Below are positions 5,004 to 41,533 of a DNA stretch of 44,668 nt, piece by piece. Positions within the stretch are counted from its first letter, which is position 1. The number at the start of each line of letters is the position of its first letter. Origin of the DNA: Methylacidiphilum sp. (GTDB lineage Bacteria; Verrucomicrobiota; Verrucomicrobiia; CAIQCK01); contig DYDC01000001.1 in NCBI GenBank assembly GCA_020718125.1, positions 1 to 44,668 of the forward strand. The letters are read 5' to 3'. Below the pieces are notes generated by a model that worked only from the letters and a program-made list of their open reading frames with translations, searched no databases and was not told where the DNA came from. A program made the position numbers and the translations under genes.

Positions 5004-5129
5004 ACATTTCCCTCATCACTTCCGCCATCGCCTTCTGCATCTCTTTCTCCCGCCCCGCCCGCTCCGCCATCCTCCGCACCGCCCGCCGCTTCAACGCAAG
5101 CTAAATGTCTGATATTGAGACCTGACCCC
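4983..5129. repeat. 147-bp inverted-repeat (MITE-like) element
   Basis: The 27-nt arms at 4983-5009 and 5103-5129 are reverse complements at 25/27 positions (GGGGTCAGGTCTCAACATTAGACATTT vs AAATGTCTGATATTGAGACCTGACCCC). They flank a 93-nt C-rich core. Confidence 0.6.
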
Positions 5130-5149
5130 GATCACCTTGGATGTTCGCA

Positions 5150-5221
5150 GTAGCGCGATTCATCGCGCGTGCGGTCGCATGTCGGAAGAACGGCGTAACG
5201 CGCGATGAATCGCGCTCCTAC
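5150..5221. repeat. REPIN-like doublet (GTAG-hairpin ... hairpin-CTAC)
   Basis: GTAGCGCGATTCATCGCGCG at 5150-5169 and CGCGCGATGAATCGCGCTCCTAC at 5199-5221 are inverted copies. Each arm is itself a 7-bp hairpin (GCGCGAT-TC-ATCGCGC). Confidence 0.55.
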
Positions 5222-5311
5222 GAACCAAACATCCCCATTTGCTTTCGCATGGAGCGGGTCAACTTCGCGCGCGACATTCTCGATAAGCCGAAAGACGGAC
5301 CTGCAGCCAGC

Positions 5312-6463: not shown

Positions 6464-6473
6464 AATTCTTTTT

Positions 6474-6523
6474 GGCAAAATCATGGTGGGCAAAATCATG
6501 ATTTTGCCCTGTATGATTTTGCC
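6474..6523. repeat. cluster of four GGCAAAATCAT 11-mers (two direct, two inverted), including a perfect 20-nt palindrome
   Basis: Copies lie at 6474-6484, 6489-6499, 6498-6508 (inverted) and 6513-6523 (inverted). GGCAAAATCATGATTTTGCC at 6489-6508 is a perfect palindrome. A fifth copy sits at 7915-7925. Confidence 0.6.
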
Positions 6524-17340: not shown

Positions 17341-18864
17341 ATGCCCGAATACTTCATCGGAATAGACAGCGGCACCCAATCCACCAAGGCCATCGTCGTG
17401 GACGCGCGCACCGGCCGCGTTGCCGGCAGCGGCGCGAAAGCGCACGGCCTCATCCCGAAACTGCCGCCGGGCCACAAGGAGCAGCACCCGAAGGTGTGGA
17501 TTGACGCGGTCATCGCCAGCGTCCGCGCCGCGCTCAAGGCTGCGAAAGTGAAGGCCGCCGACGTGCGCGGCATCGGCGTCAGCGGCCAACAGCATGGGTT
17601 CGCGCCTCTGGATGCCGCGGGCAACGTCATCCGTCCGGCAAAACTCTGGTGCGACACGTCCACCGCGACGCAATGCGACGAGATCATCGGCAAGCTGGGC
17701 GGCCTCTCGCGCGTCATCGAGCTCATCGGCAACGGCGTGCCGGCGGGTTTCACTGCGTCGAAGATTCTCTGGCTCAAACAAAACGAGCCGCAGAACTACG
17801 CGAGGCTCGCCACCGTCCTGTTGCCGCACGACTACATCAACTTCTGGCTGACGGGCAACAAGACGATGGAGTTCGGCGACGCCAGCGGCACGGCGCTGAT
17901 GGATGTGCGTTCGCGCCAATGGTGCGACGCGGTCATCGCTGCGATTGATCCCGATCTCAAAGCGAAGCTGCCGGCCATCCAGCCGAGCGACCAGCCCGCG
18001 GGCAAGTTGCGTGCTGAAGCCGCCAGGTCGCTTGGTGTGGGCGGCAACGTGATCGTCAGCGCGGGTGGTGGCGACAACATGATGGGTGCCATCGGCACCG
18101 GCAATACGCGGCCAGGCATCGTTACAGCGAGCTTCGGCACCAGCGGGACGATCTACGCGTGCAGCGACAAGCCGGTGATTGATCCCGAGGCGGAGATTGC
18201 CGCGTTCTGCGATTCCACGGGGCAATGGCTGCCGTTGCTCTGCACGATGAACGTCACCGTTGCCACCGAGATGGTCCGCAAAGACTTCGGCTGGACGTTC
18301 GCGAAGATGGACGCCGAAGTGAAGAAGACGCCTGTCGGCGCGGGCGGCCTCGTGCTGCTCCCCTACTTCGAGGGCGAGCGCACACCGAACGTGCCCGATG
18401 GCACAGGCGTCTTCTTCGGGGTGAACAACCGCACGCTCGCGGCGGGGCCGTTCGCGCGCGCGGCGATGGAGGGCGCCACGCTCGGCATGAACTACGGCCT
18501 GAACCGCCTGCGCGCGCTCGGCATCGCGCCGACGCAAATTCGCGCTACGGGCGGCGGCTCGCAATCGCCGGTTTGGCGGCAGATCATGGCCGACGTGTTC
18601 AACGCCGAGGTCGTTTGCGCGCAGACGGCGGAGGGCGCGGCCTACGGCGGCGCGTTGCAGGCAATGTGGTGCTGCGCCCGCCAGCGGGGCAGCAAGGTCG
18701 AGATTTGGGAAATCACCGATGAGTTCGTCAAACTCGACCGGAAGAGCATCGCCAAACCGAAGCCGGCCAACGTGGAGAAGTATCGCGCGCTCCAGACGCT
18801 GCAAGACCAGCTCAGCCGCGATCTGCGCGGGGCGTTTGCGAAGCACCGGGCGTTGGTGTCGTAA
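17341..18864 (+). CDS. xylB: FGGY-family carbohydrate kinase, xylulokinase-like
   Basis: IGIDSGTQSTKAIVVD ... GVSGQQHGFAPLD ... KLWCDTST ... GGGSQSPVWRQIMADVF are FGGY/xylulokinase signatures. Confidence 0.8.
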   Translation: MPEYFIGIDSGTQSTKAIVVDARTGRVAGSGAKAHGLIPKLPPGHKEQHPKVWIDAVIASVRAALKAAKVKAADVRGIGVSGQQHGFAPLDAAGNVIRPAKLWCDTSTATQCDEIIGKLGGLSRVIELIGNGVPAGFTASKILWLKQNEPQNYARLATVLLPHDYINFWLTGNKTMEFGDASGTALMDVRSRQWCDAVIAAIDPDLKAKLPAIQPSDQPAGKLRAEAARSLGVGGNVIVSAGGGDNMMGAIGTGNTRPGIVTASFGTSGTIYACSDKPVIDPEAEIAAFCDSTGQWLPLLCTMNVTVATEMVRKDFGWTFAKMDAEVKKTPVGAGGLVLLPYFEGERTPNVPDGTGVFFGVNNRTLAAGPFARAAMEGATLGMNYGLNRLRALGIAPTQIRATGGGSQSPVWRQIMADVFNAEVVCAQTAEGAAYGGALQAMWCCARQRGSKVEIWEITDEFVKLDRKSIAKPKPANVEKYRALQTLQDQLSRDLRGAFAKHRALVS

Positions 18865-18957
18865 TACGTAATGCGTAATACGTAAAACGGAAACGGAACC
18901 GTCGCACCCAGCCTTACGCATCACGCATTACGCATTACGGTTCACGTTTCCAGTTTC
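18862..18957. repeat. heptanucleotide-repeat tract pair (TAATGCG-type then GAAACGG-type, followed by their complements)
   Basis: TAATACG TAATGCG TAATACG TAAAACG GAAACG GAACCG, then a 12-nt spacer, then TTACGCA TCACGCA TTACGCA TTACGGT TCACGTT TCCAGTT. The tract fills the whole xylB-amidohydrolase intergenic gap. Confidence 0.7.
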
Positions 18958-20127: not shown

Positions 20128-20791
20128 ACGACTGGGCGGCCTGCTGGCGGTCGCAATTGCGACCGTGATGTGGCGGGCGGAGGCGCAACAGGGTGTCGCG
20201 CCGCCAACGCCCGGCGGCTTCGCTCCGCACGGTGTGGGGTCGGGTGTGGGTGTCGGCGGCGCCACGGTGGCACCCGGTCAGGTGACCAACCCCGCCGGGA
20301 TCGTGAGAGGGTTGCACTTGAAAATCCAGGCCCTGATTCGCGCGCAACGCTACAACGAAGCCGAGGCGGCAACGATGGAACTGCTCCAGCGCGAACAGAA
20401 CACGCAATCACAATACGCGCAGGTTTATTTGCGGCAGATCCAGGCCGGTCGGGCGGCATTGGAGGCGCCCTTGCGCCAGATCATCGTGCCGGAGGTCAAC
20501 TTCCGGGAGGCGAACATCGCGGATGTGGTCAAGTTCCTGGGGGACGTCAGTGTTGAGCGTTCGGCAAACAAGCGCGGCATCAGTTTCGTGCTTCAACTGC
20601 CTCCGGGCGTTCCGACGTCAACGGTAACATTGAACCTTCGCCAGACGCCATTGCTCGATGTGCTCCGCTACGCCGCCTCCGGCGCCGGGCTGGAGTTCCG
20701 CTGCGAGCAGCACGCCGTGGTCATCTACAAGCCTCAACCGGCGGCTCCAGCCGCAACGCAGGGCGGGGCACAGCCGCCGCCGGCTCCGTGA
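20099..20791 (+). CDS. secreted hypothetical protein with secretin-N/STN-like C-terminal domain
   Basis: Signal-like LGGLLAVAIATVMWRAEA. IVPEVNFREANIADVVKFL...LNLRQTPLLDVLRYA resembles the small N0/STN-type domains common in PVC bacteria. Confidence 0.45.
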   Translation: MERRCIVRIERLGGLLAVAIATVMWRAEAQQGVAPPTPGGFAPHGVGSGVGVGGATVAPGQVTNPAGIVRGLHLKIQALIRAQRYNEAEAATMELLQREQNTQSQYAQVYLRQIQAGRAALEAPLRQIIVPEVNFREANIADVVKFLGDVSVERSANKRGISFVLQLPPGVPTSTVTLNLRQTPLLDVLRYAASGAGLEFRCEQHAVVIYKPQPAAPAATQGGAQPPPAP

Positions 20792-22014
20792 TGGCAATGG
20801 AACTCGACGCGTTTGCGACTGCGGCGTTGGAGGAACTGCGCGCGGCTGGATTGCTTCGGTCGCTCCGCACGGTTGGCAATCCGCAAGGCCCGCTCATTAC
20901 GGTGGACGGCCGGGAGCTGCTGAACTTCTCCTCCAACGATTACCTCGGCCTCGCGAACGATCCGTTGCTGCGCGAGGCGGCGGTGCGCGCTGTGGAGCGA
21001 TACGGCGTCGGCGCGGGCGCGTCGCGGCTGGTCTGCGGCAACATGGCGCCGTATGGCGAACTGGAGGATCGCTTGCCGGCTTTCAAGGGGAAGGAGGCGG
21101 CGGTCGTTTTCGGTTCCGGCTATGCCGCCAATGTCGGCACGATTTGCGCGCTGGTTGGTAAAGGCGACACCGTCATCCTCGACAAGCTCAACCACGCCAG
21201 CATCGTTGATGGCGCCCGGCAGAGCGGGGCGACCGTCCGCGTCTATCCGCACCGCGACATGGACAAGCTAGAGAAGTTGCTGAAACAGAGTGGGCCGTGC
21301 GTCCCGCACGGCCAATCATCGACGATCAGCCGCGCGGGACGCGCGGCCCACCCTAGTCGCACACTCGTAGTCACAGAAACCGTCTTCTCCATGGACGGCG
21401 ACCACGCGCCGCTGCGCGAGATCGTCGAGTTGAAAGACCGCTACGGCGCGTGGCTGATGATTGATGAGGCTCACGCAACGGGCCTCTACGGGTCGCGCCG
21501 GCGGGGACTGGCCGAGGAACTGGGTGTGGAGGACCAGATTGACGTGACCCTCGGCACGTTGAGCAAGGCGCTCGGCTGCGTCGGTGGTTTCGTGTGCGGC
21601 TCGCGCGCGCTCGTGGACTTGCTCATCAACCGGGCGCGCAGCCTCATTTACTCGACGGCCCTGCCGCCGGCCATCGTCGCGGCAGCGAGCGCGGCGGTGC
21701 AGTTTGTGATGAGCGACGCCGGCCAGGCACGGCGGGAGTTGTTGTTGCAGCGGGTGAAGGAATTGCATCAAGGTGTGGTCAACCTTGGATACCGCAGCGT
21801 TCCGACCGGAGCAATCATGCCGATGGTTGTCGGTGACGAAGTCAAAGCGATGGCCCTGTCGCGGAGGCTGCTGGACGCCGGCGTCTTTGTCCCGGCGATC
21901 CGTTATCCGACCGTCGCCCGTGGCGCGGCACGCTTGCGGCTGACTGTGACGGCCGCGCATACCGCTGAACGGGTTCAGTTGCTGATAGGAAAGCTGTCGG
22001 GCGCGGGCCAGTGA
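20788..22014 (+). CDS. bioF: 8-amino-7-oxononanoate synthase
   Basis: NFSSNDYLGL, GSGYAANVG, FSMDGD and TLSKALG (PLP lysine) motifs. It carries a 68-nt palindromic insert. Confidence 0.9.
   Translation: MMAMELDAFATAALEELRAAGLLRSLRTVGNPQGPLITVDGRELLNFSSNDYLGLANDPLLREAAVRAVERYGVGAGASRLVCGNMAPYGELEDRLPAFKGKEAAVVFGSGYAANVGTICALVGKGDTVILDKLNHASIVDGARQSGATVRVYPHRDMDKLEKLLKQSGPCVPHGQSSTISRAGRAAHPSRTLVVTETVFSMDGDHAPLREIVELKDRYGAWLMIDEAHATGLYGSRRRGLAEELGVEDQIDVTLGTLSKALGCVGGFVCGSRALVDLLINRARSLIYSTALPPAIVAAASAAVQFVMSDAGQARRELLLQRVKELHQGVVNLGYRSVPTGAIMPMVVGDEVKAMALSRRLLDAGVFVPAIRYPTVARGAARLRLTVTAAHTAERVQLLIGKLSGAGQ
21287..21354 (+). repeat. REPIN-like hairpin doublet (family B) inside bioF, translated in-frame
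   Basis: AGAGTGGGCCGTGCG-TCC-CGCACGGCC, 15-nt spacer, GCCGCGCG-GGA-CGCGCGGCCCACCCT. It encodes QSGPCVPHGQSSTISRAGRAAHPS between conserved BioF blocks. Confidence 0.75.
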
Positions 22015-22081: not shown

Positions 22082-23413
22082 ATGGATTCGCTCGCTGACA
22101 AGGACCATCGCCACCTCTGGCATCCGTTCACGCAGATGCGTGACTGGATGGCGGAGGAGCCTGTCATTATCGCGCGGGGGCAGGGTGCGCGACTGTGGGA
22201 CACGAAGGGTCGCGAGTATCTCGACGCCAACGCCTCGATCTGGACGAATATCCACGGCCACAACCATCCGCGCATCAACGCCGCCATCCGCGCCCAACTG
22301 GAGAAGGTCGCGCACAGTTCGTTCCTCGGCCTGTCGAACGTGCCGGCCATCGAACTGGCGGAGAAGTTGGTCAGCATCGCGCCTGTAGCGGCGGTCTCTG
22401 ACCGCCGTCGGTTGCCAGAAGACGAACAGCCGGCGGTCAGAGACCGCCGCTACAGTCCGCTCACACGCGTTTTCTACAGCGACGACGGCTCCACGGCGGT
22501 CGAGGTGGCAATCAAGATGGCGCTGCATTACTGGGTCCATCGCGGCCAGCCGCAGCGACGGCGGTTCGTGGCATTCAGCGGCGCCTATCACGGCGATACG
22601 GTCGGCGCGGTGAGCCTCGGCGGGATTGATCTGTTTCACGCGGCCTACAAGCCGCTGCTGTTTGAAGTGGAGCATGTGGCGGACGCGGCGGCGCTGAGAT
22701 CAGTTTTGGAGAGGCATGGCAAAGAAGTGGCTGCGGTGGCGATCGAACCTCTGATTCAGGGCGCGGCGGGGATGAAGGTGTGGCCGCGCGGTTTGTTGGC
22801 AGAGACGCGGCGGCTTTGCGATGAGCACGGGGCGTTGCTGGTCGCCGACGAAGTGATGACGGGCTTTGGCCGGACAGGAACGATGTTCGCGTGCGAGCAG
22901 GAGAGCGTGACGCCGGATTTTCTGTGTCTGGCGAAAGGGTTGACGGGCGGCTACATGCCGCTGGCGGCGACACTGACGACTGACGCAGTGTTCGAAGCGT
23001 TTCTCGGCAGCTACGAAGACCAGAAGACGTTCTTTCACGGCCACAGTTATACAGGCAACCAGCTCGGCTGCGCGGCGGCGCTGGCAAGCTTGGCGGTCTT
23101 CGAGGAAGAGCAGACGCTGGAGCAGTTGCAGCCGAAGATTGGGTTGCTGCGGAACGATCTACAGGAGTTCTGCGAGCTGAAGGCGGTGATGGAGGTCCGT
23201 CAGTGTGGCTTCATCGGCGCAGTGGAGCTTGGCTCGTATCCGTGGAAGGCAAAGGCGGGCATCCGAGTGTGCCAGCGTGCGCGCGAGCTGGGCGCGCTGA
23301 CGCGGCCCATCGGCAACGTCATCGTCATCATGCCGCCACTGTGTGTGACGGAGGATGAGTTGCGGAAGATATGCGAGGCGCTGCGACGGGCGATTCAGGA
23401 GGAGTTGAGATGA
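22082..23413 (+). CDS. bioA: adenosylmethionine-8-amino-7-oxononanoate aminotransferase
   Basis: HLWHPFTQM, RVFYSDDGSTAVEVAIKMA, ADEVMTGFGRTG and MPPL motifs. It carries a 73-nt palindromic insert. Confidence 0.9.
   Translation: MDSLADKDHRHLWHPFTQMRDWMAEEPVIIARGQGARLWDTKGREYLDANASIWTNIHGHNHPRINAAIRAQLEKVAHSSFLGLSNVPAIELAEKLVSIAPVAAVSDRRRLPEDEQPAVRDRRYSPLTRVFYSDDGSTAVEVAIKMALHYWVHRGQPQRRRFVAFSGAYHGDTVGAVSLGGIDLFHAAYKPLLFEVEHVADAAALRSVLERHGKEVAAVAIEPLIQGAAGMKVWPRGLLAETRRLCDEHGALLVADEVMTGFGRTGTMFACEQESVTPDFLCLAKGLTGGYMPLAATLTTDAVFEAFLGSYEDQKTFFHGHSYTGNQLGCAAALASLAVFEEEQTLEQLQPKIGLLRNDLQEFCELKAVMEVRQCGFIGAVELGSYPWKAKAGIRVCQRARELGALTRPIGNVIVIMPPLCVTEDELRKICEALRRAIQEELR
22383..22455 (+). repeat. 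REPIN-like hairpin doublet (family C) inside bioA, translated in-frame
   Basis: CTGTAG-CGGCGGTC-TCT-GACCGCCG, 23-nt spacer, CGGCGGTC-AGA-GACCGCCG-CTACAG. The arms are perfect inverted copies. It encodes VAAVSDRRRLPEDEQPAVRDRRYS just before the conserved RVFYSDDGS block. Confidence 0.8.
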
Positions 23414-24845: not shown

Positions 24846-26255
24846 TTATTTCGCCTGAAGCGCGGCCAATATCTTGCCGTGGATTCCGCCGAAGCCGCCG
24901 TTGGAGAAGATGGCGACGACATCGTTGGGGCGCAGCAGCGGCACAATGGAGGCGACGATGGCGTCGGCGTCGGGGAGGTAGTGGGCGGGCCGGCCTCGCG
25001 CGGCGATGTCGGCGATGAGGCGTTCAGGCGACAGGCGGTCGTGTTCGGCTAGCTGCTCCAACCGGGCGATCTGGCTGACGAAGACGCCGTCGGCTTCGGC
25101 GAGCGATTCGGCTAGTTCCTTCTGGAAGACGCAGCGGCGGGTGGTGTTGCTGCGCGGTTCGAAGACGGCCCAGAGGCGGCGGCCGGGGAACTGCGGGCGG
25201 AAGGCGCGGAGGGTCTCGCGGATGGCGGTCGGGTGATGACCAAAGTCGTCCACGACGGTGACGCCGCCGGCTTCGCCGCGGATTTCCTGCCGGCGCTTGA
25301 TGCCGCGGAAGGTGTCGAAGGCGGCCTGGATTTCGGCGGCCGTGAGGCCGTGGTGAAGTGACGCGGCGGCGACGGCGAGGGCGTTGCGGACGTTGTGCTG
25401 GCCCAAGAGGGAAATGCGGAATGCGTAATGCGTAATGCGTAACTCGGAATAGTCGGCAGCCAGCCGCACGTCAGTGGCTCGGAAGTCGTTGCCGGGGCCG
25501 AGGCCGAAAGTTTTGACGGGGCAGGGGGCGGTGGCGATGACTTCACGGACGTTGGGGTCGTCGCCGTTGGCGAGGACGAGGCCGTTGGGCGGGACGATGT
25601 TGATGAGGCGGCGGAAGGTGAGCTTGATGTCGTCGAGACTCGCGAAGATGTCGGCGTGGTCGAATTCGATGTTGTTGATGATGACGGTGTCGGGCAGGTA
25701 GTGGAGGAACTTGGAGCGCTTGTCGAAGAACGCGGTGTCGTATTCGTCGCCCTCGCTGATGAAGTAGCGGGCCTTTGGCGGGCAGGCGCAGCCTTGGCCG
25801 AGGTTGAGCGGGATGCCGCCGATGAGGTAGCCGGGGGCGCGGCCGGCGTGCTGGAAGGTCCAGGCCAGCAGCGACGTGGTGGTGGTCTTGCCGTGGGTGC
25901 CGGTGACGACAATGGAGGTCTTTCCCTGGATGAAGAACTCGCGCAGGACTTCGGGCAGCGAGGCGTAGCGGAGTCTGCGATCGAGGACGGCCTCGACCTC
26001 GGGGTTGCCTCGGCTGATGACGTTGCCGATGACGACGAGATCGGGCGCGCCGACGGCATCGAGGTTGGCGGCGGCATAGGAGGCCATCGCGGTGATGTCC
26101 TGTCCGGCGAGGAACGTGGACATGGGTGGATACACGTTCTGGTCGGAGCCGGTGACGCGCAGGCCGCGTTGTTTGAGGAGTGCGGCGGCAGCGGCCATGG
26201 CGGCGCCGCAGATGCCGAGGAAGTGGACGTGACGAATCTGGTCGGGCAGCAGCAT
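24846..26255 (-). CDS. mpl: UDP-N-acetylmuramate:L-alanyl-gamma-D-glutamyl-meso-DAP ligase (murein peptide ligase)
   Basis: HFLGICGAAMAAAA, TGTHGKTTTTS P-loop, GDEYDTAFFDKRSKF and DDFGHHPTA motifs. The start was set at the ATG at 26255. It contains a heptad tract at 25413-25454. Confidence 0.85.
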   Translation of the reverse strand: MLLPDQIRHVHFLGICGAAMAAAAALLKQRGLRVTGSDQNVYPPMSTFLAGQDITAMASYAAANLDAVGAPDLVVIGNVISRGNPEVEAVLDRRLRYASLPEVLREFFIQGKTSIVVTGTHGKTTTTSLLAWTFQHAGRAPGYLIGGIPLNLGQGCACPPKARYFISEGDEYDTAFFDKRSKFLHYLPDTVIINNIEFDHADIFASLDDIKLTFRRLINIVPPNGLVLANGDDPNVREVIATAPCPVKTFGLGPGNDFRATDVRLAADYSELRITHYAFRISLLGQHNVRNALAVAAASLHHGLTAAEIQAAFDTFRGIKRRQEIRGEAGGVTVVDDFGHHPTAIRETLRAFRPQFPGRRLWAVFEPRSNTTRRCVFQKELAESLAEADGVFVSQIARLEQLAEHDRLSPERLIADIAARGRPAHYLPDADAIVASIVPLLRPNDVVAIFSNGGFGGIHGKILAALQAK

Positions 26256-28861: not shown

Positions 28862-28951
28862 TGGCGGAGGGGGCGAGATTCGAACTCGCGAGGGCTTTTA
28901 CACCCCACACGCTTTCCAGGCGTGCTCCTTCAACCACTCGGACACCCCTCC
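28862..28951 (-). tRNA. tRNA-Ser (anticodon GGA)
   Basis: The reverse complement folds as acceptor GGAGGGG/CCCCTCC, anticodon stem CACGC/GCGTG with loop CTGGAAA, a long variable arm, T-arm GCGAG-TTCGAAT-CTCGC, and an encoded CCA. Confidence 0.9.
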
Positions 28952-29084: not shown

Positions 29085-30197
29085 ATGCCCCCAGCCAAAG
29101 CGGCCGACAAAACCGAAAAAACAGACAAAGCCGAGAAGATCGAGAAACCGGCGGGAACCGACGCGGCGCCCGCCAAGACCCCCGCGCAGGTCAAGCAGCT
29201 CGAAGCCGCCATCGCCCACATCGCCAAGACCTACGGCGAGGGCAGCATCATGCGCCTTGGCGACGAGCGCGCCCGCGTGAAGATCGGCGTCATCTCGACG
29301 GGTTCGCTGGCCATTGACATGGCGCTCGGCATCGGCGGCGTGCCGCGCGGGCGCATCGTGGAGATTTACGGCCCGGAAATGTCCGGCAAGACCACGCTCG
29401 TGCTCCAGATCATGGCGCAGGCGCAGAAAAACGGCGGCTTGGCGGCGTTCATTGACGCCGAGCACGCGATGGCCCCGAACTACGCCAAGAAGCTCGGCGT
29501 CAACCTCGACGATTTGCTGGTGAGCCAGCCTGATAGTGGTGAAGAAGCGCTTCAGATCGTCGAGACGCTGGTTCGTTCCAACGCGCTTGACGTTATCGCG
29601 ATTGACTCGGTCGCCGCGCTCGTTCCGCGGGCCGAACTCGAAGGCCAGATGGGCGACGCCATCGTCGGCGTGCAGGCGCGTCTCATGAGCCAGGCGATGC
29701 GCAAACTGACCTCGATTGTGGCGAGGGCCAACACCTGCGTCATCTTCACCAACCAGCTCCGCGAAAAAATCGGCGTCATGTTCGGCAGCCCGGAGACGAC
29801 GCCGGGCGGCAAGGCGCTGAAGTTCTACGCCAGCGTGCGCATTGACATCCGCCGCCAGCAGCAGATTAAAGACCCCGAAGGCCGCGCCATCGGCAACCAT
29901 TGCAAGGTGAAGGTCGTGAAGAACAAGTGCGCCCCGCCGTTCACCGAGTGCGAATTCGACGTGATGTATAACGAGGGCATCTCGAAGGAAGGCAGCATCC
30001 TCGACGTGGCGACCAACTGCGGCGTCGTCGAGAAGAAAGGCTCCTGGCTCCAGTTCGAGGGCGAGATGATCGGCCAGGGCCGCGAAGCCGCGAAGGACTT
30101 CCTCCGCCAGAACCCCGCCGTCGGTGAGAAGATCGTCGCGGCGGTGAAGGCCAAGGCGGCAGGCCCGGCGGCTGCCGCCGAAGTGAAGAGTGAATAG
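29085..30197 (+). CDS. recA: recombinase RecA (with K/E/A-rich N-terminal extension)
   Basis: [17 protein letters not shown] Walker A, FIDAEHA and [20 protein letters not shown] motifs. Confidence 0.95.
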
Positions 30198-30269
30198 TTC
30201 AGAGTGAAGAGTTCAGAAAGTCAGTCACCGTTAACTCTTCACTCTTCACTCTTCACTTTTAACTTTCTG
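30180..30269. repeat. heptanucleotide-repeat tract pair (GTGAAGA-type and complement TCTTCAC-type)
   Basis: AGAGTGAAGAGTT (30201-30213) pairs perfectly with AACTCTTCACTCT (30233-30245). CAGAAAG (30214-30220) pairs with CTTTCTG (30263-30269). The tract begins inside the last recA codons. Confidence 0.7.
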
Positions 30270-30274
30270 CCGTC

Positions 30275-33200
30275 ATGACCAGTTCCGAAATACGCCAGTT
30301 GTTCCTCGACTACTTCAAGCGCCAGGGGCACACCATCGTGCCGTCGTCGTCGCTGCTGCCCGACGCGCCGAACCTGCTGTTCACCAACGCCGGCATGAAC
30401 CAGTTCGTGCCGATCTTCCTCGGCCAGCAGCCGTGCCCCTACAAGCCCCAGCGCGCCGCCGACACGCAGAAGTGCATCCGCGCGGGCGGCAAGCACAACG
30501 ACCTCGAAGACGTCGGCCTCGACACCTACCACCACACGTTCTTCGAGATGCTCGGCAACTGGAGCTTCGGCGACTATTTCAAAAAGGAAGCCATCGCGTG
30601 GGCGTGGGAACTCGTCACATCGAAGGACTGGTGGGGCTTCCCGAAGGAGCGCATCTACGCCACGGTCTATAAGCCCGGCCCCGGCGATCCGAGCGAGTTC
30701 GACCAGGAAGCCTACAACCACTGGGCGAGCATCTTCACCGCCGCCGGCCTCGACCCGAAGCAGCACATCGTCTTCGGCAACAAGAAGGACAACTTCTGGA
30801 TGATGGGCGACACCGGCCCGTGCGGCCCGTGTTCGGAGCTGCACGTGGACCTCACGCCCAAGGGTGACACGCACGGCGCGCTGGTCAACAAAGGCAGCGC
30901 GCAGTGCATCGAGATCTGGAACCTCGTGTTCATGGAGTTCAACGCGAACCCGGACGGCACGTTTTCGCCGCTGCCGGCCAAGAATGTGGACACCGGCGCG
31001 GGCTTCGAGCGCGTCACCTCGATCATCCAGTGCACGAAGAACTTCACCGACTTCGGCGGCATCATCTCCAACTACGAGACTGACGTCTTCCGGCCCATCT
31101 TCGACGTGCTGGAGAAGCTCAGCGGCAAACGCTACGGCTCCACGCTGCCGAAGGCGGGCGAATTACCGGCTGCCGAGCAGGAGAAAATCGACATCGCTTT
31201 CCGTGTCATCGCCGACCACATCCGTTGCCTGGGCTTCGGCATCGCTGACGGCATCCCGCCGAGCAACGAAGGCCGCGGCTACGTCCTGCGCCGCATCCTG
31301 CGCCGCGCCGTCCGCTACGGCCGCTCACTCGGCTTCCACGAGCCGTTCTTCTACAAGCTCGTCGCGGTGCTCGCCCGGACGATGGGCGGCGTGTTCCCGG
31401 AAGCGCGCCAGCGGCAGGCGAGCATCGAGAAGGCCCTGCGCGGCGAGGAGGAGAGTTTCAACCGGACCTTGGATCGCGGCATTGAATTGTTCAACGAGGA
31501 AGCGTTGCGATTGACGGGGAGCGCACGCGTCCCGCGTGCGACTTCCGGCGTCTCGCCGGAAGCTGCGGTGGGCGCACGCTACTCCAAGCGTCGTTTGCCG
31601 CACTTTGAACGACCGTGGGCGAAATACATCGTGACGTTCTCCACCGTGGAGCGCCGGCAACTATCGCCGGCGGCCCGCGGTATCGTCTTGAACAGTCTGT
31701 TGTTTGTGCAGCAGCAAGGCCGCTACCAACTCTACGCCGCGTGTGTGATGCCCGACCACGTCCATTTGCTCTTCGAACCGCAAATCAAGACAGAAGACGC
31801 CGAGGGCAAGCCAATGTTTTGGTCGCTCACAGAACTCCTGCATTCCATCAAATCGTTCACGGCACACGAGATCAACAAGACAGAGGCCAAAAGCGGAGCC
31901 GTATGGGAAAAGGAGTCGTTTGACCGAATGATCCGGTCGGATGCGGACTGTGAAGAGAAGTTCAACTACATCTGCCAAAACCCTTGGGGGCCGGGTGGGG
32001 TTGCGCAGACGGAACCGTATCAGTGGTTGTGGACGCCTGAGGTTGCGCAACCGCAGACTCCTCGGCGGGACGCCGAGGAGGGCACGCGGGACGCGTGCGC
32101 TCCCCGGAACCTAACGGGCGACTTCGCTTTCAAACTCTATGACACCTACGGCTTCCCGCTCGACCTCACGGAACTGATGGCTCGCGAGCAGGGACTGAAA
32201 GTGGACGTGCCAGGCTTCGAAAAGCGGATGGAAGAACAACGGCAGCGGGCGCGTGAGGACTACGAGAAGAAGAAGTCGGTCATCGCGGCTGTGGGCGAGG
32301 GGCTGAAGGTCGAGCCGACGAAGTTCCTCGGCTACGACAACCTCGAAGCCGAGGCGGTCGTCGAGGCCGTCGCGCCGGGCGCGGAGGCGGGCGAGTTCGA
32401 GGTCGTCCTCGACAAGACGCCATTCTATGCCGAGATGGGCGGCCAGGTCGGCGACACGGGCCTGGTCCACGCGCCGGGACACGACTGGACCGAACTGGGC
32501 AAGCTACAGGTGCTCGACACGCAGCGTCAGGGCGAGGTCCATGTTCACCGCTCCAAGCTCTCCGACGGCCGCGCGCCGGTGGTGGGGGAGGCGGTGCGCG
32601 CAGCAGTGGACGCGGCGCGGCGGGCGAACATCCAGCGGCACCACACGGTGACGCACCTGTTCCACTGGGCGTTGCACGAGGTCGTCAGCAAGGACGCGCG
32701 GCAGCGCGGCTCGCATGTCGCGCCGGACCGGATGCGGTTCGATTTCAATCACCCGGAGCGGCTGACCGAGCGGCAGATCGCCGACATCGAGCGGCTGGTT
32801 AACGAGCGGATCAAGGAGAACGCGCCGGTCTATTGGACCGAAGCGCCTTACACCGAGATCAAGGGCAACGCGGCCGTGATGCAGTTCTTCGGCGAGAAAT
32901 ACGGCGACATCGTCCGCGTGGTGCAGATCGGCGGCCACGCGGGCAAGTTCGACGGCTATTCGGCGGAGCTTTGTGGCGGCACGCACACGCGGAACACGGG
33001 CGACATTCAGTTCTTCAAGATCGCGAAAGAGTCTGCCATCGCGGCGGGCACGCGCCGCGTCGAGGCGGTCGTGGGCCGGTTCGCGCTGGAGTTCGTGGAG
33101 AAGATGAAGGTTCAGCAGCGGGCCGAAGCCGCCAAAGCGCAGGCTCGCGGGCAGGACAAGGAACTCGCGAAGCAGCGGCAGGCGGATGCGCAGCGTCAGG

Positions 33201-33565
33201 CCGCGGGTCTTGCCGGTCAACTACTGGCGAAGGCGCAGCAGGTCGGCGCCGTGAAGTGCGTCGTTGCCAACGTCGGGGAAACGACGCCTGATGCGCTACG
33301 GACGATTGTTGACGGCATCAAGCCGAAGTTGCCGAGCGGCGTGGTTGTGCTCGGTGGCACGGGCGGCGGCAAGGTGTCGCTGGTTTGCTTCATCACACCC
33401 GACCTCGTGAAAGCGGGCAAGAACGCCGGCGAGATTGTTGGCGCGCTGGCGAAGACTTGCGGCGGTGGCGGCGGCGGCAGGCCGGACATGGCGCAGGCCG
33501 GCGGCAAAGACCCGTCGAAGCTCGACGAGGCGCTGAGATCTGTCACGGGCTTGATTGGCGGCTGA
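30275..33565 (+). CDS. alaS: alanine--tRNA ligase carrying an in-frame ~197-codon insertion
   Basis: FTNAGMNQF, KHNDLEDVG, WSFGDYFK, LYDTYGFPLDLT, the HHTVTHLL-type editing motif (RHHTVTHLFHWAL) and a C-terminal GGGG DHHA1-like end. It is 1096 aa versus the roughly 870-900 aa I recall for typical bacterial AlaRS. Confidence 0.9.
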   Translation: MTSSEIRQLFLDYFKRQGHTIVPSSSLLPDAPNLLFTNAGMNQFVPIFLGQQPCPYKPQRAADTQKCIRAGGKHNDLEDVGLDTYHHTFFEMLGNWSFGDYFKKEAIAWAWELVTSKDWWGFPKERIYATVYKPGPGDPSEFDQEAYNHWASIFTAAGLDPKQHIVFGNKKDNFWMMGDTGPCGPCSELHVDLTPKGDTHGALVNKGSAQCIEIWNLVFMEFNANPDGTFSPLPAKNVDTGAGFERVTSIIQCTKNFTDFGGIISNYETDVFRPIFDVLEKLSGKRYGSTLPKAGELPAAEQEKIDIAFRVIADHIRCLGFGIADGIPPSNEGRGYVLRRILRRAVRYGRSLGFHEPFFYKLVAVLARTMGGVFPEARQRQASIEKALRGEEESFNRTLDRGIELFNEEALRLTGSARVPRATSGVSPEAAVGARYSKRRLPHFERPWAKYIVTFSTVERRQLSPAARGIVLNSLLFVQQQGRYQLYAACVMPDHVHLLFEPQIKTEDAEGKPMFWSLTELLHSIKSFTAHEINKTEAKSGAVWEKESFDRMIRSDADCEEKFNYICQNPWGPGGVAQTEPYQWLWTPEVAQPQTPRRDAEEGTRDACAPRNLTGDFAFKLYDTYGFPLDLTELMAREQGLKVDVPGFEKRMEEQRQRAREDYEKKKSVIAAVGEGLKVEPTKFLGYDNLEAEAVVEAVAPGAEAGEFEVVLDKTPFYAEMGGQVGDTGLVHAPGHDWTELGKLQVLDTQRQGEVHVHRSKLSDGRAPVVGEAVRAAVDAARRANIQRHHTVTHLFHWALHEVVSKDARQRGSHVAPDRMRFDFNHPERLTERQIADIERLVNERIKENAPVYWTEAPYTEIKGNAAVMQFFGEKYGDIVRVVQIGGHAGKFDGYSAELCGGTHTRNTGDIQFFKIAKESAIAAGTRRVEAVVGRFALEFVEKMKVQQRAEAAKAQARGQDKELAKQRQADAQRQAAGLAGQLLAKAQQVGAVKCVVANVGETTPDALRTIVDGIKPKLPSGVVVLGGTGGGKVSLVCFITPDLVKAGKNAGEIVGALAKTCGGGGGGRPDMAQAGGKDPSKLDEALRSVTGLIGG
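31516..32105 (+). mobile_element. REP-associated tyrosine transposase (RAYT / IS200-like Y1 HUH) cassette with 24-nt perfect terminal inverted repeats, embedded in alaS
   Basis: GGGGAGCGCACGCGTCCCGCGTGC (31516-31539) is the exact reverse complement of 32082-32105. The interior encodes RRLPHFERPWAKYIVTF..., MPDHVHLLF (HUH) and FNYICQNPW (catalytic Tyr region). There is no stop codon in the alaS frame. Confidence 0.75.
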
Positions 33566-33870: not shown

Positions 33871-33904
33871 TCGCCGGGCGGGGCCGATATTTTCGGCCGT
33901 GTTG

Positions 33905-34130
33905 TAAGTCTTCAGGGCAGGGTGAACATGCCGCCTGTAGTGACGGTGGCGGCAAGTGATTCCCGACCGGCGGTAAACCCCGCGACCCCTCGCGAGCAGA
34001 GGGCTGATCCGGTGCAACTCCGGAGGCGACGGTAAAGTCCGGACGAAAGAAGAATTCGTGGCTCGCCTGCAAGGCAGGCGGCGTGTCACTTTCGACCCTG
34101 AAGGCTGTGCGGCTTCAGGGTTGTTATTTT
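33905..34130 (+). promoter_or_regulatory. FMN riboswitch (RFN element) with expression platform, upstream of ribBA
   Basis: CTTCAGGGCAGGGTGAA...ATTCCCGACCGGCGGTAAACCCCGCGA...GATCCGGTGCAACTCCGGAGGCGACGGTAAAGTCCGGACGAAAGAAGA matches the conserved RFN core blocks in order. Confidence 0.85.
34095..34130 (+). terminator. riboswitch terminator/sequestor hairpin
   Basis: ACCCTGAAG-(9-nt loop)-CTTCAGGGT followed by TGTTATTTTA, immediately before the ribBA ATG. Confidence 0.5.
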
Positions 34131-34131: not shown

Positions 34132-35376
34132 ATGAGTGAGAAACTGACAGTGCAGCCTGGCCAGGACCTGATTCCCGGTTGTCCGTTCGACCCGGTGGAT
34201 GAGGTCATCGCCGATGTGCGCGCCGGCAAGCTGGTGATCGTCACCGACGACGCCGACCGTGAGAACGAGGGCGACCTCATTGTCGCAGCGGAGAAGATCA
34301 CGCCTGCGGTGGTGAACTTCATCGTCAAGCACGGGCGCGGCCTGCTGTGCGTGGCGTTGCAGGACGAGGACCTCACCCGCCTCGGCATCAGCCGGATGGT
34401 TGAGCAGAACCACGACTCGTTCGGGACGGCGTTCATGGTCACCGTGGACGCCGCGGAAGGTGTCACCACAGGCATCAGCGCTGCCGATCGGGCGAAAACA
34501 ATCCAAGTGCTCGGCAGTCCAAAATCGAAGCCGGACGACCTGCGGCAGCCCGGCCACGTCAATCCGCTCGCGGCGCGTCCGGGCGGCGTGTTGCGGCGCG
34601 CGGGGCATACGGAGGCGGCAGTGGACCTGGCGCGGCTGGCGGGGCTGCATCCGTGCGGCGTGCTCTGCGAGATCATGAACGACGACGGCGCGATGGCACG
34701 GCTGCCGGAACTGATCGCGTTCAAGCGCAAACACGGCCTGAAGATGTGCAATATGCGCGACCTGATCCACCATCGGAACCGGCGCGAGAAGCTCATAGTC
34801 AAGGAGCGGGAGGTGACGATGCCGACGGATTGCGGCCACTTCAAGCTGCACCTCTACCGTTCGCTGGTTGACGGCCAGCACCACGTCGCGCTGGTCAAGG
34901 GCGACGTGCGCGGCCGGCGGGGCGTGCTGGTGCGCGTCCACAGCGAATGCCTCACGGGTGATGTGTTTCATTCGCAGCGATGCGACTGCGGCGGCCAGCT
35001 CCACCGCGCCATGAAGATGGTCGAGGACGAGGGGTGTGGCGTCATCGTCTATCTGCGGCAGGAAGGCCGTGGTATCGGTCTGTCGCACAAGATTCACGCC
35101 TACGAGTTGCAGGAGAAGGAAGGTTTGGACACGGTTGAGGCGAATGAACGCCTCGGCTTCCAAGCCGACCTGCGCGAATACGGCATCGGCGCCCAGATCC
35201 TCGTGGACCTCGGCCTTCGCTCCATCCGCCTGCTGACGAACAATCCCAAGAAGATGATCGGTCTCGACGGCTTCGGCCTGAAGGTGATCGAGCAACTGCC
35301 GATCCGCGGCAACCTGACGCCGCACAACGCCCGCTATCTGAAAACCAAGAAACTCAAACTGGGCCACGTCCTCTGA
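34132..35376 (+). CDS. ribBA: bifunctional 3,4-dihydroxy-2-butanone-4-phosphate synthase / GTP cyclohydrolase II
   Basis: DDADRENEGDLI (RibB) and VRVHSECLTGDVF..RCDCG (RibA zinc site) motifs. Confidence 0.95.
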   Translation: MSEKLTVQPGQDLIPGCPFDPVDEVIADVRAGKLVIVTDDADRENEGDLIVAAEKITPAVVNFIVKHGRGLLCVALQDEDLTRLGISRMVEQNHDSFGTAFMVTVDAAEGVTTGISAADRAKTIQVLGSPKSKPDDLRQPGHVNPLAARPGGVLRRAGHTEAAVDLARLAGLHPCGVLCEIMNDDGAMARLPELIAFKRKHGLKMCNMRDLIHHRNRREKLIVKEREVTMPTDCGHFKLHLYRSLVDGQHHVALVKGDVRGRRGVLVRVHSECLTGDVFHSQRCDCGGQLHRAMKMVEDEGCGVIVYLRQEGRGIGLSHKIHAYELQEKEGLDTVEANERLGFQADLREYGIGAQILVDLGLRSIRLLTNNPKKMIGLDGFGLKVIEQLPIRGNLTPHNARYLKTKKLKLGHVL

Positions 35377-37162: not shown

Positions 37163-38063
37163 GGGCCTCTCCAAGACCCACGACAAGCTGGTCGGCGAGA
37201 TCAAGCGCATCGTCACCCGCGCGCCCAAGCTCGACCCGGAATCATTGGATGAACTTGAAGCCGCGCTGATCGGTTGCGACATCGGCGTCGAGACCGCGTT
37301 GCGGATCGTGGAGGAAGTCCGCAATGCGAGCGCTGAGGTGGGTCGGGCGTCCCGCACGGCCTCTGGCGAGGTGGATGTGGTGGCAATCGCCAAGCGCATC
37401 GCGTCCGAGGCGCTCAACAGCGGCCCGCTCGCACTGCGTCAGGCCGCGCGGCCGCCGACGGTCGTGTTGCTGGCAGGCGTCAACGGCACCGGCAAGACAA
37501 CCTCGACGGCCAAACTCGCGCATCAGCTCAAACAGGACGGTCGGAGCGTGCTGCTCGCCGCGTGCGACACGTTCCGAGCGGCGGCCATCGAGCAGCTTAA
37601 GATTTGGGGCCAGCGCACCGGCTGCGATGTGATTGCCGGCCAATACGGCGCCGACTCGGCCGCCATCGCCTTTGACGCGCTCGATGCGGCCATCAGCCGC
37701 AAGTGTGACTACCTGTTGATTGACACCGCCGGGTGCCTGCACACGAAGAAGAATCTCATGGATGAGATGGCCAAGATGCGGCGCGTGATCCGAAAACGAG
37801 TGCCCGACGCGCCGCACGAGACGCTGCTGGCGCTGGATGCGACGACCGGCGTCAACGGTCTGAATCAAGCGCGGGAGTTTCATCAGGCGCTGGGCGTGAC
37901 CGGCCTCATTGTCACGAAGCTCGACGGCACCGCCAAAGGCGGTATCGTGGTGGCCATCAACCGCGAGTTGAAGATTCCCGTGAAGTTCATCGGCGTCGGC
38001 GAGCAGGCGGACGACCTCCAGCCCTTCGACGCCAAGGCGTTTGCCGATGCCCTCTTCAGTTGA
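37134..38063 (+). CDS. ftsY: signal recognition particle receptor FtsY
   Basis: GVNGTGKTTSTAKLA, DTAGCLHTK and TKLDGTAKGG SRP-GTPase motifs. Confidence 0.9.
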   Translation: MLGLLQKFREGLSKTHDKLVGEIKRIVTRAPKLDPESLDELEAALIGCDIGVETALRIVEEVRNASAEVGRASRTASGEVDVVAIAKRIASEALNSGPLALRQAARPPTVVLLAGVNGTGKTTSTAKLAHQLKQDGRSVLLAACDTFRAAAIEQLKIWGQRTGCDVIAGQYGADSAAIAFDALDAAISRKCDYLLIDTAGCLHTKKNLMDEMAKMRRVIRKRVPDAPHETLLALDATTGVNGLNQAREFHQALGVTGLIVTKLDGTAKGGIVVAINRELKIPVKFIGVGEQADDLQPFDAKAFADALFS

Positions 38064-39213
38064 GTTCGACGAGCAGATGATGCGGCGCGCGCTGGCGCTG
38101 GCCCGGCGCGCGTTGGGGGAGACTTCGCCCAACCCGATGGTGGGGGCCATCGTCGCCAAGAACCGCCGCCTTATCGCCGAGGGCTACCATTACCGCGCAG
38201 GCACGCCACACGCCGAGATTCATGCGCTGAAAGCGGCCGGAACCCGCGCCAGGGGCGCAGACCTCTACGTGACTCTGGAGCCGTGCAGCACACACGGCCG
38301 GACACCGCCCTGCACGGACGCCATCATCGAGGCTGGCATCCGCCGCGTCGTGGTCGCGACGAAGGATCCAAACCCGCGTCACGCAGGCCGCGGCCTTGAC
38401 TTATTGAAAGAGGCTGGCATCAAGGTCGAGATGGGCCTGCTGGCTGAGGAAGCGGCCCGATTCAACGAATGTTTCAACAAATGGATCCGCGCAGGCACGC
38501 CGTTTGTCATCGCGAAGGCCGCCATGTCGCTCGACGGCAAGATTGCGACCGCCGGCGGCAAGTCGAAGTGGATCACCGGCGAGCCGGCGCGCGCGCTGGT
38601 GCGGGAGTTGCGGCGCGGTGTGGACGCGATCATGGTTGGGTGGCGAACCGTGGCGTTGGACGACCCGCGGTTGACGGTGCGGCTGCGCGGCGTCAAGCAT
38701 CAGCCGTGGCGGGTGGTGGTGGACGCGCGCGGTGAGTCGGGCTTGAAGGCGAACGTTTACACCGACGAGCACAAGGCGCGGACGATGGTGGTCACGAGCA
38801 AGTTGGCGCCTGCGGCTTGGCGCAAGCAACTAGCCGACCGCGGAGTTGCAATCATTGAGTGCGCTACTGTAGCGGCGGTCTCTGACCGCCGCAGCACCCG
38901 GAGTGAACGGCCGGCGGTCGGAGACCGCCGCTACAGTGATCGGATTGACCTGCGTGACGCGCTGCGGCGGCTCGGCGAGCGCGAGATCACGAGCGTGCTT
39001 GCCGAGGGTGGCGGGCGGTTATTGGGGGCGTTGATGGATCAGCGGCTGGTGGACAAGCTGGTGTTCTTCTACGCGCCGAAGATCATCGGCGGACGCGAAG
39101 CGCCGACGGCCATCGAGGGCGAGGGCATCAAGGCGCTGGCCGATGCCGTCACGTTGCGAAACGTCGAGTGGCGCAGGCTGGGGGAGGACCTCGTGGTGAC
39201 GGCTTACTGCTGA
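38041..39213 (+). CDS. ribD: bifunctional riboflavin deaminase/reductase RibD
   Basis: PNPMVGAIV, HAEIHAL and TLEPCSTHGRTPPC deaminase motifs, plus a C-terminal reductase region (EGGG). It carries a 70-nt palindromic insert. Confidence 0.9.
   Translation: MPMPSSVEFDEQMMRRALALARRALGETSPNPMVGAIVAKNRRLIAEGYHYRAGTPHAEIHALKAAGTRARGADLYVTLEPCSTHGRTPPCTDAIIEAGIRRVVVATKDPNPRHAGRGLDLLKEAGIKVEMGLLAEEAARFNECFNKWIRAGTPFVIAKAAMSLDGKIATAGGKSKWITGEPARALVRELRRGVDAIMVGWRTVALDDPRLTVRLRGVKHQPWRVVVDARGESGLKANVYTDEHKARTMVVTSKLAPAAWRKQLADRGVAIIECATVAAVSDRRSTRSERPAVGDRRYSDRIDLRDALRRLGEREITSVLAEGGGRLLGALMDQRLVDKLVFFYAPKIIGGREAPTAIEGEGIKALADAVTLRNVEWRRLGEDLVVTAYC
38867..38936 (+). repeat. REPIN-like hairpin doublet (family C) inside ribD, translated in-frame
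   Basis: CTGTAGCGGCGGTCTCTGACCGCCG ... CGGCGGTCGGAGACCGCCGCTACAG. The left arm is identical to the bioA copy. It encodes VAAVSDRRSTRSERPAVGDRRYS. Confidence 0.8.
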
Positions 39214-40103
39214 TCAGCAAAAGTTGCCAGCCGGCGAAACGCTTTTTGTTTCTCGCTCAGTTCGAGCTTGGTCGTGTTCAGCGTTTCCCGCAGGAACTCG
39301 ATGCTCTGGTCATAAACTTCGCGGTTTACCGGATACGGATGACCGTCTTTGCCGCCGTGGGCGAAGCTGAAACGGGCCGGGTCGCGCCAACTGGGGGCGG
39401 TGCCGTAAAGTAGTTCGCTGATGAGAGCGAGGGCGCGCAAAGTTTTCGGCCCGACGCCGGGGAGTGACAGGAGTTGCTCGAAGGACTGTGGCGCGGTTTC
39501 GTAGGTTTGAAGCAGGATGCGATGAAGGCGGTCGGGGTTGATGTCCGCGATGCGTATCGGATGGCGGCGAGGCTGGGTTAGTTCGAAACCGGGCAGCGCG
39601 GGCGTAGAGTGGGCCGTGCGTCTCGCACGGCTTGTCGCTGATGATTGGCCGTGCGGGACGCACGGCCCACTCTGTTCAAGTTCCTTCATCAGCGCGTCAG
39701 GCTGCTCGCGGGTCACAGTCACGCTTGCTTGACGAGTCGCATCACTCTCCGCCGCCACAAGGTTCAGCGTCGCTTGTCCGCGCTGGTCACAGCAGACGGC
39801 GGCGTGAGGCTCGTTGACAAAGTTCTGCACGTTGTCGCCGAGCCAAGGGTAGCGGCGGGCGTATTTGCCGGTCGCGTTCATGCCTTGCTGGACTACGGCC
39901 CAATAGCCGCTCGACGTGAACAGAAAACAGTGGTGATAGAGGTCGTAGCCGTCCTGCACGGCAGCAGAGTCCACCTTTGCAGCGAGTTTACTCGCGTAAA
40001 CCAATTCCATCGGACTGCGGCTGAGCGCGTAACAATGCGCCTCGATCTCCGACGGTGTCTTGCGCGAGGTGGCGCCTTTGCCGCCGGCGACGCCGGTTTT
40101 CAC
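39204..40103 (-). pseudogene. DUF763-family gene lacking its N-terminal ~110 codons
   Basis: Family-like sequence starts at GVAGGKGATSRKTPSEIE... and includes VDSAAVQDGYDLYHH, VVQQGMN and EPHAAVCCD. The upstream part of the ORF-track reading frame is antisense to ribE and unrelated. The only possible start is the GTG at 40103. Confidence 0.5.
39606..39673 (-). repeat. REPIN-like hairpin doublet (family B) inside the DUF763 remnant, in-frame
   Basis: On the minus strand the first 27 nt (AGAGTGGGCCGTGCGTCCCGCACGGCC) are identical to the bioF copy. It encodes QSGPCVPHGQSSATSRARRTAHST. Confidence 0.75.
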
Positions 40104-41527: not shown

Positions 41528-41533
41528 TCTTTT

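Follow-up and report, generated by a model that had tools for sequence, protein, structure and literature searches.

A lineage-restricted, REPIN-like palindrome family translated within bioF and other genes of the Verrucomicrobia

Repetitive extragenic palindromes (REPs) tagged with the tetranucleotide GTAG occur in the Verrucomicrobia, and in most GTAG-20 elements of Opitutus terrae the tag has become GTGG (Di Nocera, De Gregorio and Rocco, 2013; PMC3733652). The same paper also records that REP termini can supply TAG stop codons, that more than half of the intragenic REP inserts are dimers or groups encoding 20-30 residues, and that different REPs lie at about the same recB site in two Xanthomonas species. 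REPINs (REP doublets forming hairpins) were defined by Bertels and Rainey (2011; PMC3116915), who treated singlets as decayed remnants and found compensatory changes to be common. Here a family of such palindromes, termed family B, is described from 44,668 nucleotides of Methylacidiphilum sp. (GenBank assembly GCA_020718125.1, contig DYDC01000001.1, positions 1 to 44,668, forward strand; this entire 44.7-kb stretch is called the window), where one copy is translated within bioF and another within a DUF763 gene. Family B is well supported as belonging to the GTAG-type REP superfamily; it is restricted to one lineage, carries GTGG as a mutated form of the tag and has its arms arranged in REPIN-like inverted doublets. 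Elements of this sort, including ones within genes, have been reported from Verrucomicrobia before, and family B is a fairly ordinary example of them. Modestly new are the orthologous intragenic copies frozen against a synonymous clock, the individual hairpin as the conserved unit, and the re-use of a codon boundary in BioF and of a site in bioA.

Among described systems, the GTAG-17 to GTAG-20 elements of O. terrae share with family B the phylum, a short, tetranucleotide-tagged G+C palindrome and the arrangement in inverted pairs. They also resemble it in that many copies stand just after stop codons, a sizeable minority lies wholly within open reading frames (ORFs), dimers encode 20-30 residues, and related species have different REPs at nearly the same place in one gene (PMC3733652). 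Family B differs in its apparently distinct stem, GCCGTGCG/CGCACGGC, and in its hosts (BioF, DUF763, Memo-like and LuxC/LuxE-like proteins). It differs further in that orthologous intragenic copies are shown here to be frozen across two species, a point that the same paper did not test. The REPINs of Pseudomonas fluorescens SBW25 are similar in combining two inverted REPs with a less conserved spacer, in their decayed singlets and compensatory changes, in forming higher-order clusters (compare the four-arm elements of loci L018 and L104) and in being present or absent between relatives (PMC3116915). However, SBW25 REPINs are extragenic and each group adjoins its REP-associated tyrosine transposase (RAYT) (PMC3116915), whereas about 25-30% of the family-B sites seen here are coding. 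Unlike in SBW25, the hairpin that each family-B arm forms on its own is better conserved than the long stem between arms.

Rickettsia palindromic elements (Ogata et al., as cited in PMC3733652) offer a further parallel, being selfish palindromes that lie in frame in surface regions of housekeeping proteins and are retained in orthologues. The likeness is one of function only, and these apparently unrelated elements differ in being of CGTC type or longer, in belonging to alphaproteobacteria, in having no GTGG tag and in length. The REPs and bacterial interspersed mosaic elements (BIMEs) of Escherichia coli likewise pair a GTAG-like 5' tag with an imperfect hairpin and occur as inverted pairs, and by analogy they may serve as a model for the mechanism suggested below. 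The TnpA-REP transposase of E. coli reportedly acts on single-stranded DNA, where both the tag and irregularities in the stem serve for recognition. Family B differs from the E. coli elements in sequence, host phylum and intragenic location, and is known from sequence alone.

The window holds two 68-nt family-B doublets, at 21287-21354 in bioF (+) and at 39606-39673 in the DUF763 gene (-), each composed of two inverted arms (GTGG tag, 8-bp stem, TCC loop) around a 15-nt spacer, and the two are placed in equal orientation relative to the host gene and in equal codon phase. The first host, bioF (ORF 20788..22014, +; Pfam PF00155, E=2e-64), encodes 8-amino-7-oxononanoate synthase, and its doublet reads AGAGTGGGCCGTGCG-TCC-CGCACGGCC / AATCATCGACGATCA / GCCGCGCG-GGA-CGCGCGGCCCACCCT. 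The left arm (21287..21313, +) carries the tag AGAGTGG and the hairpin GCCGTGCG-TCC-CGCACGGC; it is followed by the A/T-richer spacer AATCATCGACGATCA (21314..21328, +) and by the inverted right arm GCCGCGCG-GGA-CGCGCGGC-CCACCCT (21329..21354, +), which is of the C:G arm subtype. The doublet is translated as QSGPCVPHGQSSTISRAGRAAHPS (aa 167-190), directly ahead of TLVVTETVFSMDGD, and thereby separates a helix ending in ...KLEKLLK from the strand LVVTETVFSMDGD.

On the reverse strand of 39606-39673, the left arm in gene orientation (39647..39673, -) is identical to that of bioF; it precedes the spacer AATCATCAGCGACAA (39632..39646, -) and a right arm (39606..39631, -) reading GCCGTGCG-AGA-CGCACGGCCCACTCT, that is, GCCGTGCG-AGA-CGCACGGC-CCACTCT, so that the arms are 96% complementary. 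The translation, QSGPCVPHGQSSATSRARRTAHST, falls between positions 226 and 233 of the Pfam profile. The first 27 nt are equal in the two window copies, identity extending from the preceding CAG through AATCATC, and the right arm of bioF departs from an ideal inverted copy by the mutually pairing changes T>C and A>G and by one tail position (CCCACCCT). A sequence-only reading of this DNA had already described the arms, spacer, orientation, phase and first 27 nt of both copies, and all of this holds on rechecking. The fold energies of the doublets are -31.6 and -34.6 kcal/mol (z = -8 and -11), and the 21-nt hairpin has seven matches with up to three mismatches in the window against 0.01 expected.

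The second host (39204..40103, -; PF05559, E=1e-84) is a 299-aa ORF with a GTG start at 40103. Its description as a remnant proved apt, as the conserved N-terminus is gone through an in-frame 261-nt deletion (87 codons) relative to the orthologue, with GTCGCC direct repeats at the borders (window 39204-40460, -; L055 1259-1515). A longer, 418-aa version of the ORF is an artefact that runs into the antisense of the upstream gene.

Family B is dispersed well beyond these two genes. An arm-pattern scan of one genome per species, the counts of which are lower bounds, found the pattern concentrated in one Verrucomicrobia metagenome-assembled genome (MAG), JACRKA01, with at least 12 loci and approximately 24 or more arms spread over 12 separate contigs. 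Synteny and 80-88% nucleotide identity mark the window as related to this MAG. Five arms lie in the window itself, and a metagenome scan returned 13 stretches with family B, which added six doublets. All copies have the common ends NAGRGTGGG...CCCACYCT. Each arm of approximately 26 nt consists of the tag, an 8-bp G+C stem and a TCC or TCT loop, and the spacers (13-17 nt) are A/T-richer and variable in sequence. In an alignment of 27-nt arms, G4 and T5 are invariant and G6-G8 at least 90% conserved, which defines the tag GTGG, followed by the 8-bp stem and 3-nt loop.

These features are those of a REP, namely a short, imperfect palindrome with a GTAG-like terminal tetranucleotide, present in many dispersed copies. 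The features of a REPIN are found as well, as REPs are paired in inverted orientation at a fixed short distance with one predicted hairpin, and doublets (14, with two four-arm clusters in L018 and L104) outnumber singlets or cut copies (about five). No direct duplication flanks any copy in the flanks listed, and the ends are tagged hairpins rather than terminal inverted repeats of insertion-sequence (IS) type, which is not the make-up of a miniature inverted-repeat transposable element (MITE). The covariance models of Rfam 15 gave no match at the doublets, only RNase P, an FMN riboswitch and a tRNA reaching threshold in the window. The loose arm pattern also matches dense same-strand arrays (up to six copies in 460 nt) in the MAG CAYQSE01, labelled Enterobacteriaceae (L003, L007, L015, L052 and others); these belong to an unrelated REP/BIME-like family that happens to have GTGGG.CG.GCGTC.CGC.CGGC.

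The age of the insertions can be judged from the related MAG, which carries a doublet with the same arm subtypes at the same bioF codon (L013). The DUF763 doublet likewise recurs there at the same site, in L055, where the contig ends inside the element. Both insertions are thus shown to predate the split of the two species. Between the two genomes, bioF differs at about 21% of positions (17-24%) and at 37% of third codon positions. The arms of the bioF doublet show no change in 53 positions (P=2e-6 given the codon-position rates), and the spacer 3 in 15. The arms are thus conserved at synonymous positions too, so their conservation does not come from selection on protein.

Covariation in the stem points the same way. 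Among 43 distinct arms, some of them chosen with a pattern in which certain positions were set beforehand, 91.7% of cells in the stem (columns 8-15 with 19-26) are paired, and five of the eight true stem pairs show double, compensatory changes. Position 5 is C:G in 11 arms, U:A in 11 and G:C in 9, and the closing pair is G:C in 35 and C:G in 5; the changes alter the peptide (C/R/G and H/R/P) with the base pairs kept. The covariation score is 0.243 against 0.073 for shuffles, none of 500 shuffles scores as high, and slid controls collapse. For the most part, variants are compensated inside the arm that carries them. Pairs within an arm's own hairpin are kept in 213 of 224 cases against 189 of 224 for arm-to-arm pairs, which suggests that constraint falls on the single REP hairpin rather than on the long stem between arms. 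The T>C/A>G pair of the bioF right arm, put forward as a compensatory change, is a real pairing but not a private event in bioF, as the C:G right-arm subtype recurs in at least seven other copies (L001, L042, L044, L077, L101, L103 and L106) and in bioF of L013; it is a recurrent arm type older than the species split.

Most copies appear to be noncoding and intergenic. About 14 of approximately 20 sites have no credible spanning frame and five or six lie inside Pfam-supported genes, gene calls being made by ORF and G+C content at third codon positions (GC3) only; several noncoding copies stand directly after a stop codon (TAG/AGTGGG, the slash marking the junction). Normal GC3 periodicity is seen at five independent coding sites, in BioF, DUF763, a Memo-like protein (L001), a LuxE-like protein (L018) and a LuxC-like protein (L104), and all five are read in one phase, xSGPxVPxG...GRAGRxAH. 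Intragenic copies sit in variable surface loops or linkers; as they alter the length of the gene by a whole number of codons and the phase is free of stops, they are translated as loops of about 23-24 aa. Among noncoding doublets, this same phase is stop-free in 15 of 18, compared with 9 and 12 of 18 for the others, and its expected share is therefore about 0.42. The common phase noticed in the two window copies thus extends to all five coding sites (p~0.013 for five sites), but stop codons already favour it, and a bias beyond their effect is suggestive only.

A profile HMMER search with 30 positions from the two window peptides found no match at E<=1e-3 among 1.84e9 representative proteins, and a word-index protein search with a composite of three reading-phase peptides gave four candidates and no match, the peptides being too short for that index. 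The peptide thus has no counterpart in that set. Together with the unchanged arms, the stem covariation and the apparent predominance of noncoding copies, this supports the earlier proposal that the constraint is on the DNA or RNA hairpin and not on the peptide.

Comparison of BioF orthologues, which the sequence-only reading had advised, shows that the doublet is an insertion and not a native protein motif. Against solved BioF structures (PDB 8s1y/7poa), the 24 residues align to nothing, falling after the helix ...LEELLKA and before the strand LIVTDGVFSMDGD. Close orthologues P0004, P0008 and P0015 (386-388 aa) have no insert, three BioF lineages (P0001, P0002 and P0003) have one, and an orthologous filled copy lies in L013. 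At the DNA level, an empty site in L117 reads CTCAAA/GCGAAGCATGAGGGGCGA, and filled genes are a net 57 nt longer. An AlphaFold2 model of BioF from a 22-row alignment left residues 168-190 unstructured between helix and strand; its mean predicted local distance difference test (pLDDT) score of 53 is too poor for a fold search. Similarly, a doublet present in the Memo-like gene of L001 is absent from the window orthologue (2508-3758, -), and a four-arm element is in the LuxC-like gene in L104 and in the neighbouring LuxE-like gene in the orthologous L018. With the filled and empty BioF alleles, these differences amount to movement or insertion polymorphism between relatives, as known for REPINs.

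We regard it as probable that family B is a mobile REPIN-type family, spread through a RAYT acting in trans, with intragenic copies tolerated in loops and arm identity kept at the nucleic-acid level. In such a mechanism, copies may spread via single-stranded hairpin intermediates handled in trans by a RAYT, and only insertions into tolerant loops would survive selection. The identity of the arms could then be kept by purifying selection on the hairpin (as a protein- or nuclease-binding site or an RNA structure), by intrastrand templated correction of quasi-palindromes, or by both, and not by selection on the peptide. Templated correction of quasi-palindromes is established from template-switch mutagenesis. 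It would also yield compensatory pairs in one step.

Several observations weigh against this explanation. When the AlaS RAYT described below, two free-standing relatives and two BioF-fused RAYTs were compared with the retrieved loci by tblastn, neither the window nor any locus bearing family B yielded a RAYT with family-B arms on its flanks, the DNA covered being loci rather than a whole genome. The cognate RAYT expected beside a REPIN family is thus absent from this DNA, and the link to a transposase is therefore one of analogy. Comparing L117 with the window and L104 with L018 gave no definable target duplication or clean empty/filled junction, since the loops of the hosts either vary strongly or hold other repeats. 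Element lengths of 67, 68 and 71 nt are not multiples of three. The covariation counts distinct sequences rather than independent events, and an uncompensated G.A at stem position 5 in 11 distinct arms (about a quarter of arm types) means that perfect pairing is not strictly required.

As to which enzyme would do the moving, the sequence-only reading had named the RAYT domain embedded in alaS (31515..32106, +) as the obvious candidate mobiliser. alaS is a single open frame of 1096 aa (30275-33565) with a RayT-family Y1 transposase domain in frame at aa ~415-611, and both its HUH motif (HVH, aa 495-497) and its Tyr motif (NYICQNP, aa 564) have been preserved. By these motifs and its relatives (free-standing RAYTs of up to 67% identity in a homology search), the embedded domain is a genuine RayT-family member. 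It is the only RAYT gene in the window, looks catalytically intact and is flanked by hairpins that have in common with family B a TCC loop and three closing pairs GCG/CGC. However, its own ends, 44-nt inverted sequences of two hairpins each, differ in the stem (GCACGCG/CGCGTGC), in a second, unrelated hairpin (CTTCCGGCG-TCT-CGCCGGAAG) and in the leader (GGGGAGC), and have no GTGG tag. Its closest relatives by tblastn (61-68% identical, including L114 and L116) keep the GCACGCG stem with a loop of CCT, CCCT or AGGG; since the loop varies, the feature shared with family B is the non-conserved part for that clade and not a conserved recognition feature. The shared 9-mer GCGTCCCGC is a weak link, being mildly over-represented in the window (9 occurrences against 2.6 expected, a count reached by 1 of 100 shuffles). 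As a rule, the REPs next to a RAYT are its cognate ones (PMC3116915; PMC3733652). The designation as obvious candidate is not supported; we think it unlikely that the AlaS RAYT moves family B, and the cognate enzyme is probably another. L088 and L059 hold RAYTs with other GT(A/G)GG families at their flanks, and the L088 homologue has on both sides doublets of family-B-like architecture, GTGGGGCGGGCG-TCT-CGCCCGGC.

The remaining alternatives concern what keeps the copies where they are. Retention of the arms for a host function, such as stabilising mRNA, causing pauses within the bio operon or binding a nucleoid or topology protein, with the intragenic copies domesticated, would accord with both arms being frozen, third codon positions included, over ~21% divergence and with the persistence of the insert in three BioF lineages. 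REPs in general are also said to contribute to RNA stability, termination and supercoiling (PMC3733652). Nevertheless, insert-free BioF orthologues are common and interspersed with filled ones, the same loop holds unrelated palindrome families in other lineages, and the Memo-like insert is absent from the window, so that a host function is conceivable but rather doubtful. That the doublets are scars of in-frame RAYT cassettes, with the terminal hairpins left after deletion of the transposase, was suggested by the many Verrucomicrobial BioF proteins of 555-649 aa that are fused to RAYT domains with palindrome-encoded flanking peptides; the in-frame cassette of alaS and the thought that REPINs derive from RAYT flanks (PMC3116915) speak for it too. 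This idea was rejected for the bioF site, as the fusions are C-terminal and not at the insert loop. In general it is very improbable, with RAYT remnants in none of ~20 family-B sites and with short spacers (13-17 nt) alike between copies, as expected for a unit copied whole. Finally, QSGPCVPHG...RAGRAAHP could be a genuine protein module with incidental palindromy of its DNA, as its single phase in five different proteins and the slight phase bias beyond the stop-codon effect (5 of 5 against a share of 0.42) would allow. This reading is close to refuted and can be given very little credence: third positions are conserved in the arms and not in the spacer or host codons, most copies appear noncoding, the protein search returned nothing, close orthologues and every solved BioF structure lack the insert, and covariation changes the peptide with pairing kept. 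A mobile REPIN-type family with arms constrained as nucleic acid thus remains the preferred explanation.

The BioF loop after ...KLEKLLK is itself re-used, with at least four unrelated palindrome or REP families occupying it in different lineages, all at one codon boundary and in one phase (alignment columns 165-200). Examples are CAG/AGTGGG..., CAA/AGTAGG..., /GCTGCGAGCGAGGGC... and CAA/AGTAGGACAGGCGTCT... (the last in L118), and in L119 the doublet bears the tag GGGAGCGC; on a rough neighbour-joining tree, filled and empty alleles are intermingled. This loop is either a hot-spot or a uniquely permissive site. A second BioF loop, before ...IIPL (columns 350-383), holds further palindromes. 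In bioA, the orthologous site carries a family-A doublet in the window and a different palindromic doublet (GTTGGAGTTCAGGCTTCAGCCTG...) in the related MAG (L013 ~7260-7340). Family-A doublets (CTGTAGCGGCGGTCTCTGACCGCCG and its inverse) are also translated, in bioA (22383-22455; ORF 22082-23413) and in ribD (38867-38936; ORF 38041-39213), as VAAVSDRR...PAV(R/G)DRRYS, and the phase used is the only one without TAG or TGA. The 'empty' Memo-like allele of the window has at 3285-3337 a low-complexity linker of GAAGG type, KGEGQRTKDEKRQ, with related repeats at 15964, 23409 and 41245, and L018 has TTCACGT three times at ~3879-3914 where its relative carries a family-B element. Linker sites seem to be occupied in turn by different short repeat families. 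A more speculative suggestion, to which we give little weight at present, is that particular surface loops of Verrucomicrobial housekeeping enzymes are targeted integration or replacement sites for tagged palindromes and not merely tolerant. If true, it would imply either that one REPIN is exchanged for another where a hairpin already exists or that a target is recognised, and in addition a function or correction mechanism that acts on the nucleic acid within genes.

The 25 nt upstream of the two window copies (21262-21286 and 39674-39698) are identical at 14 of 25 positions, against a mean of 6.9 +/- 2.2 for other copy pairs, and rank in the top 4 of 452 pairs. The likeness is stronger still between L013 and L055, which have GACAAGCT in common, and both flanks encode the end of a helix (DKLEKLLK; DALMKELE). 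Target preference, co-transfer of flanks or coincidence might account for it, and the observation is suggestive only. A lone degenerate family-B arm, GAGGTGGGTCGGGCGTCCCGCACGGCC, lies in ftsY (37335..37361, +), where it is read in another phase as EVGRASRTA (aa 68-76); its fold is not significant (z = -0.7), and it is consistent with a decayed singlet.

A RAYT 64% identical to that of AlaS is also found inside alaS in an unrelated metagenome contig (L116), and that of L114 is wedged between two type II secretion E ATPase (T2SS-E) genes, 2 nt after the one and with a 4-nt overlap with the other. Many Verrucomicrobial BioF proteins (P0032-P0105; one cluster on 44 contigs) run past the normal C-terminus into a RAYT domain (PF01797; alignment columns 460-761) flanked by the palindrome-encoded peptides VGAASPPRP, GAVFNRDR and GGDAAPT. 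These represent either a real fusion or a systematic loss of stop codons at REP-RAYT cassettes downstream of bioF.

Other repeats in the window include a GTAG-tagged doublet, CAGTAGCGCGATTCATCGCGCG, at 5143-5225, at the very start of ORF 5141-6526; a 35-nt inverted pair (4975-5137) flanking 5010-5102; short tandem and inverted repeats of CGTAATG type at 18860-18946 and 25403-25449; and AAGTGAAGAGTGAA inverted repeats at 30181-30265, just upstream of alaS. The Rfam matches are RNase P class A RNA at 41533-41910 (+), an FMN riboswitch at 33904-34058 (+), upstream of ORF 34132-35376, and a tRNA at 28865-28951 (-).

Family B leaves the picture of what REPs are unchanged. For annotation, inserts of 20-30 aa and RAYT fusions inflate and fragment Verrucomicrobial gene models, and for protein engineering they show where BioF, BioA, RibD and other proteins have loops that are permissive by nature. 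The conserved association of a RAYT with alaS merits its own study. In terms of REPIN biology, the synonymous divergence of the host gene serves as an internal clock for constraint on the element, and family B provides a clean, quantified case of a REP/REPIN-type element that has stayed in essential-pathway genes for longer than a speciation event, with its hairpin arms, and not the peptide or the host codons, conserved.

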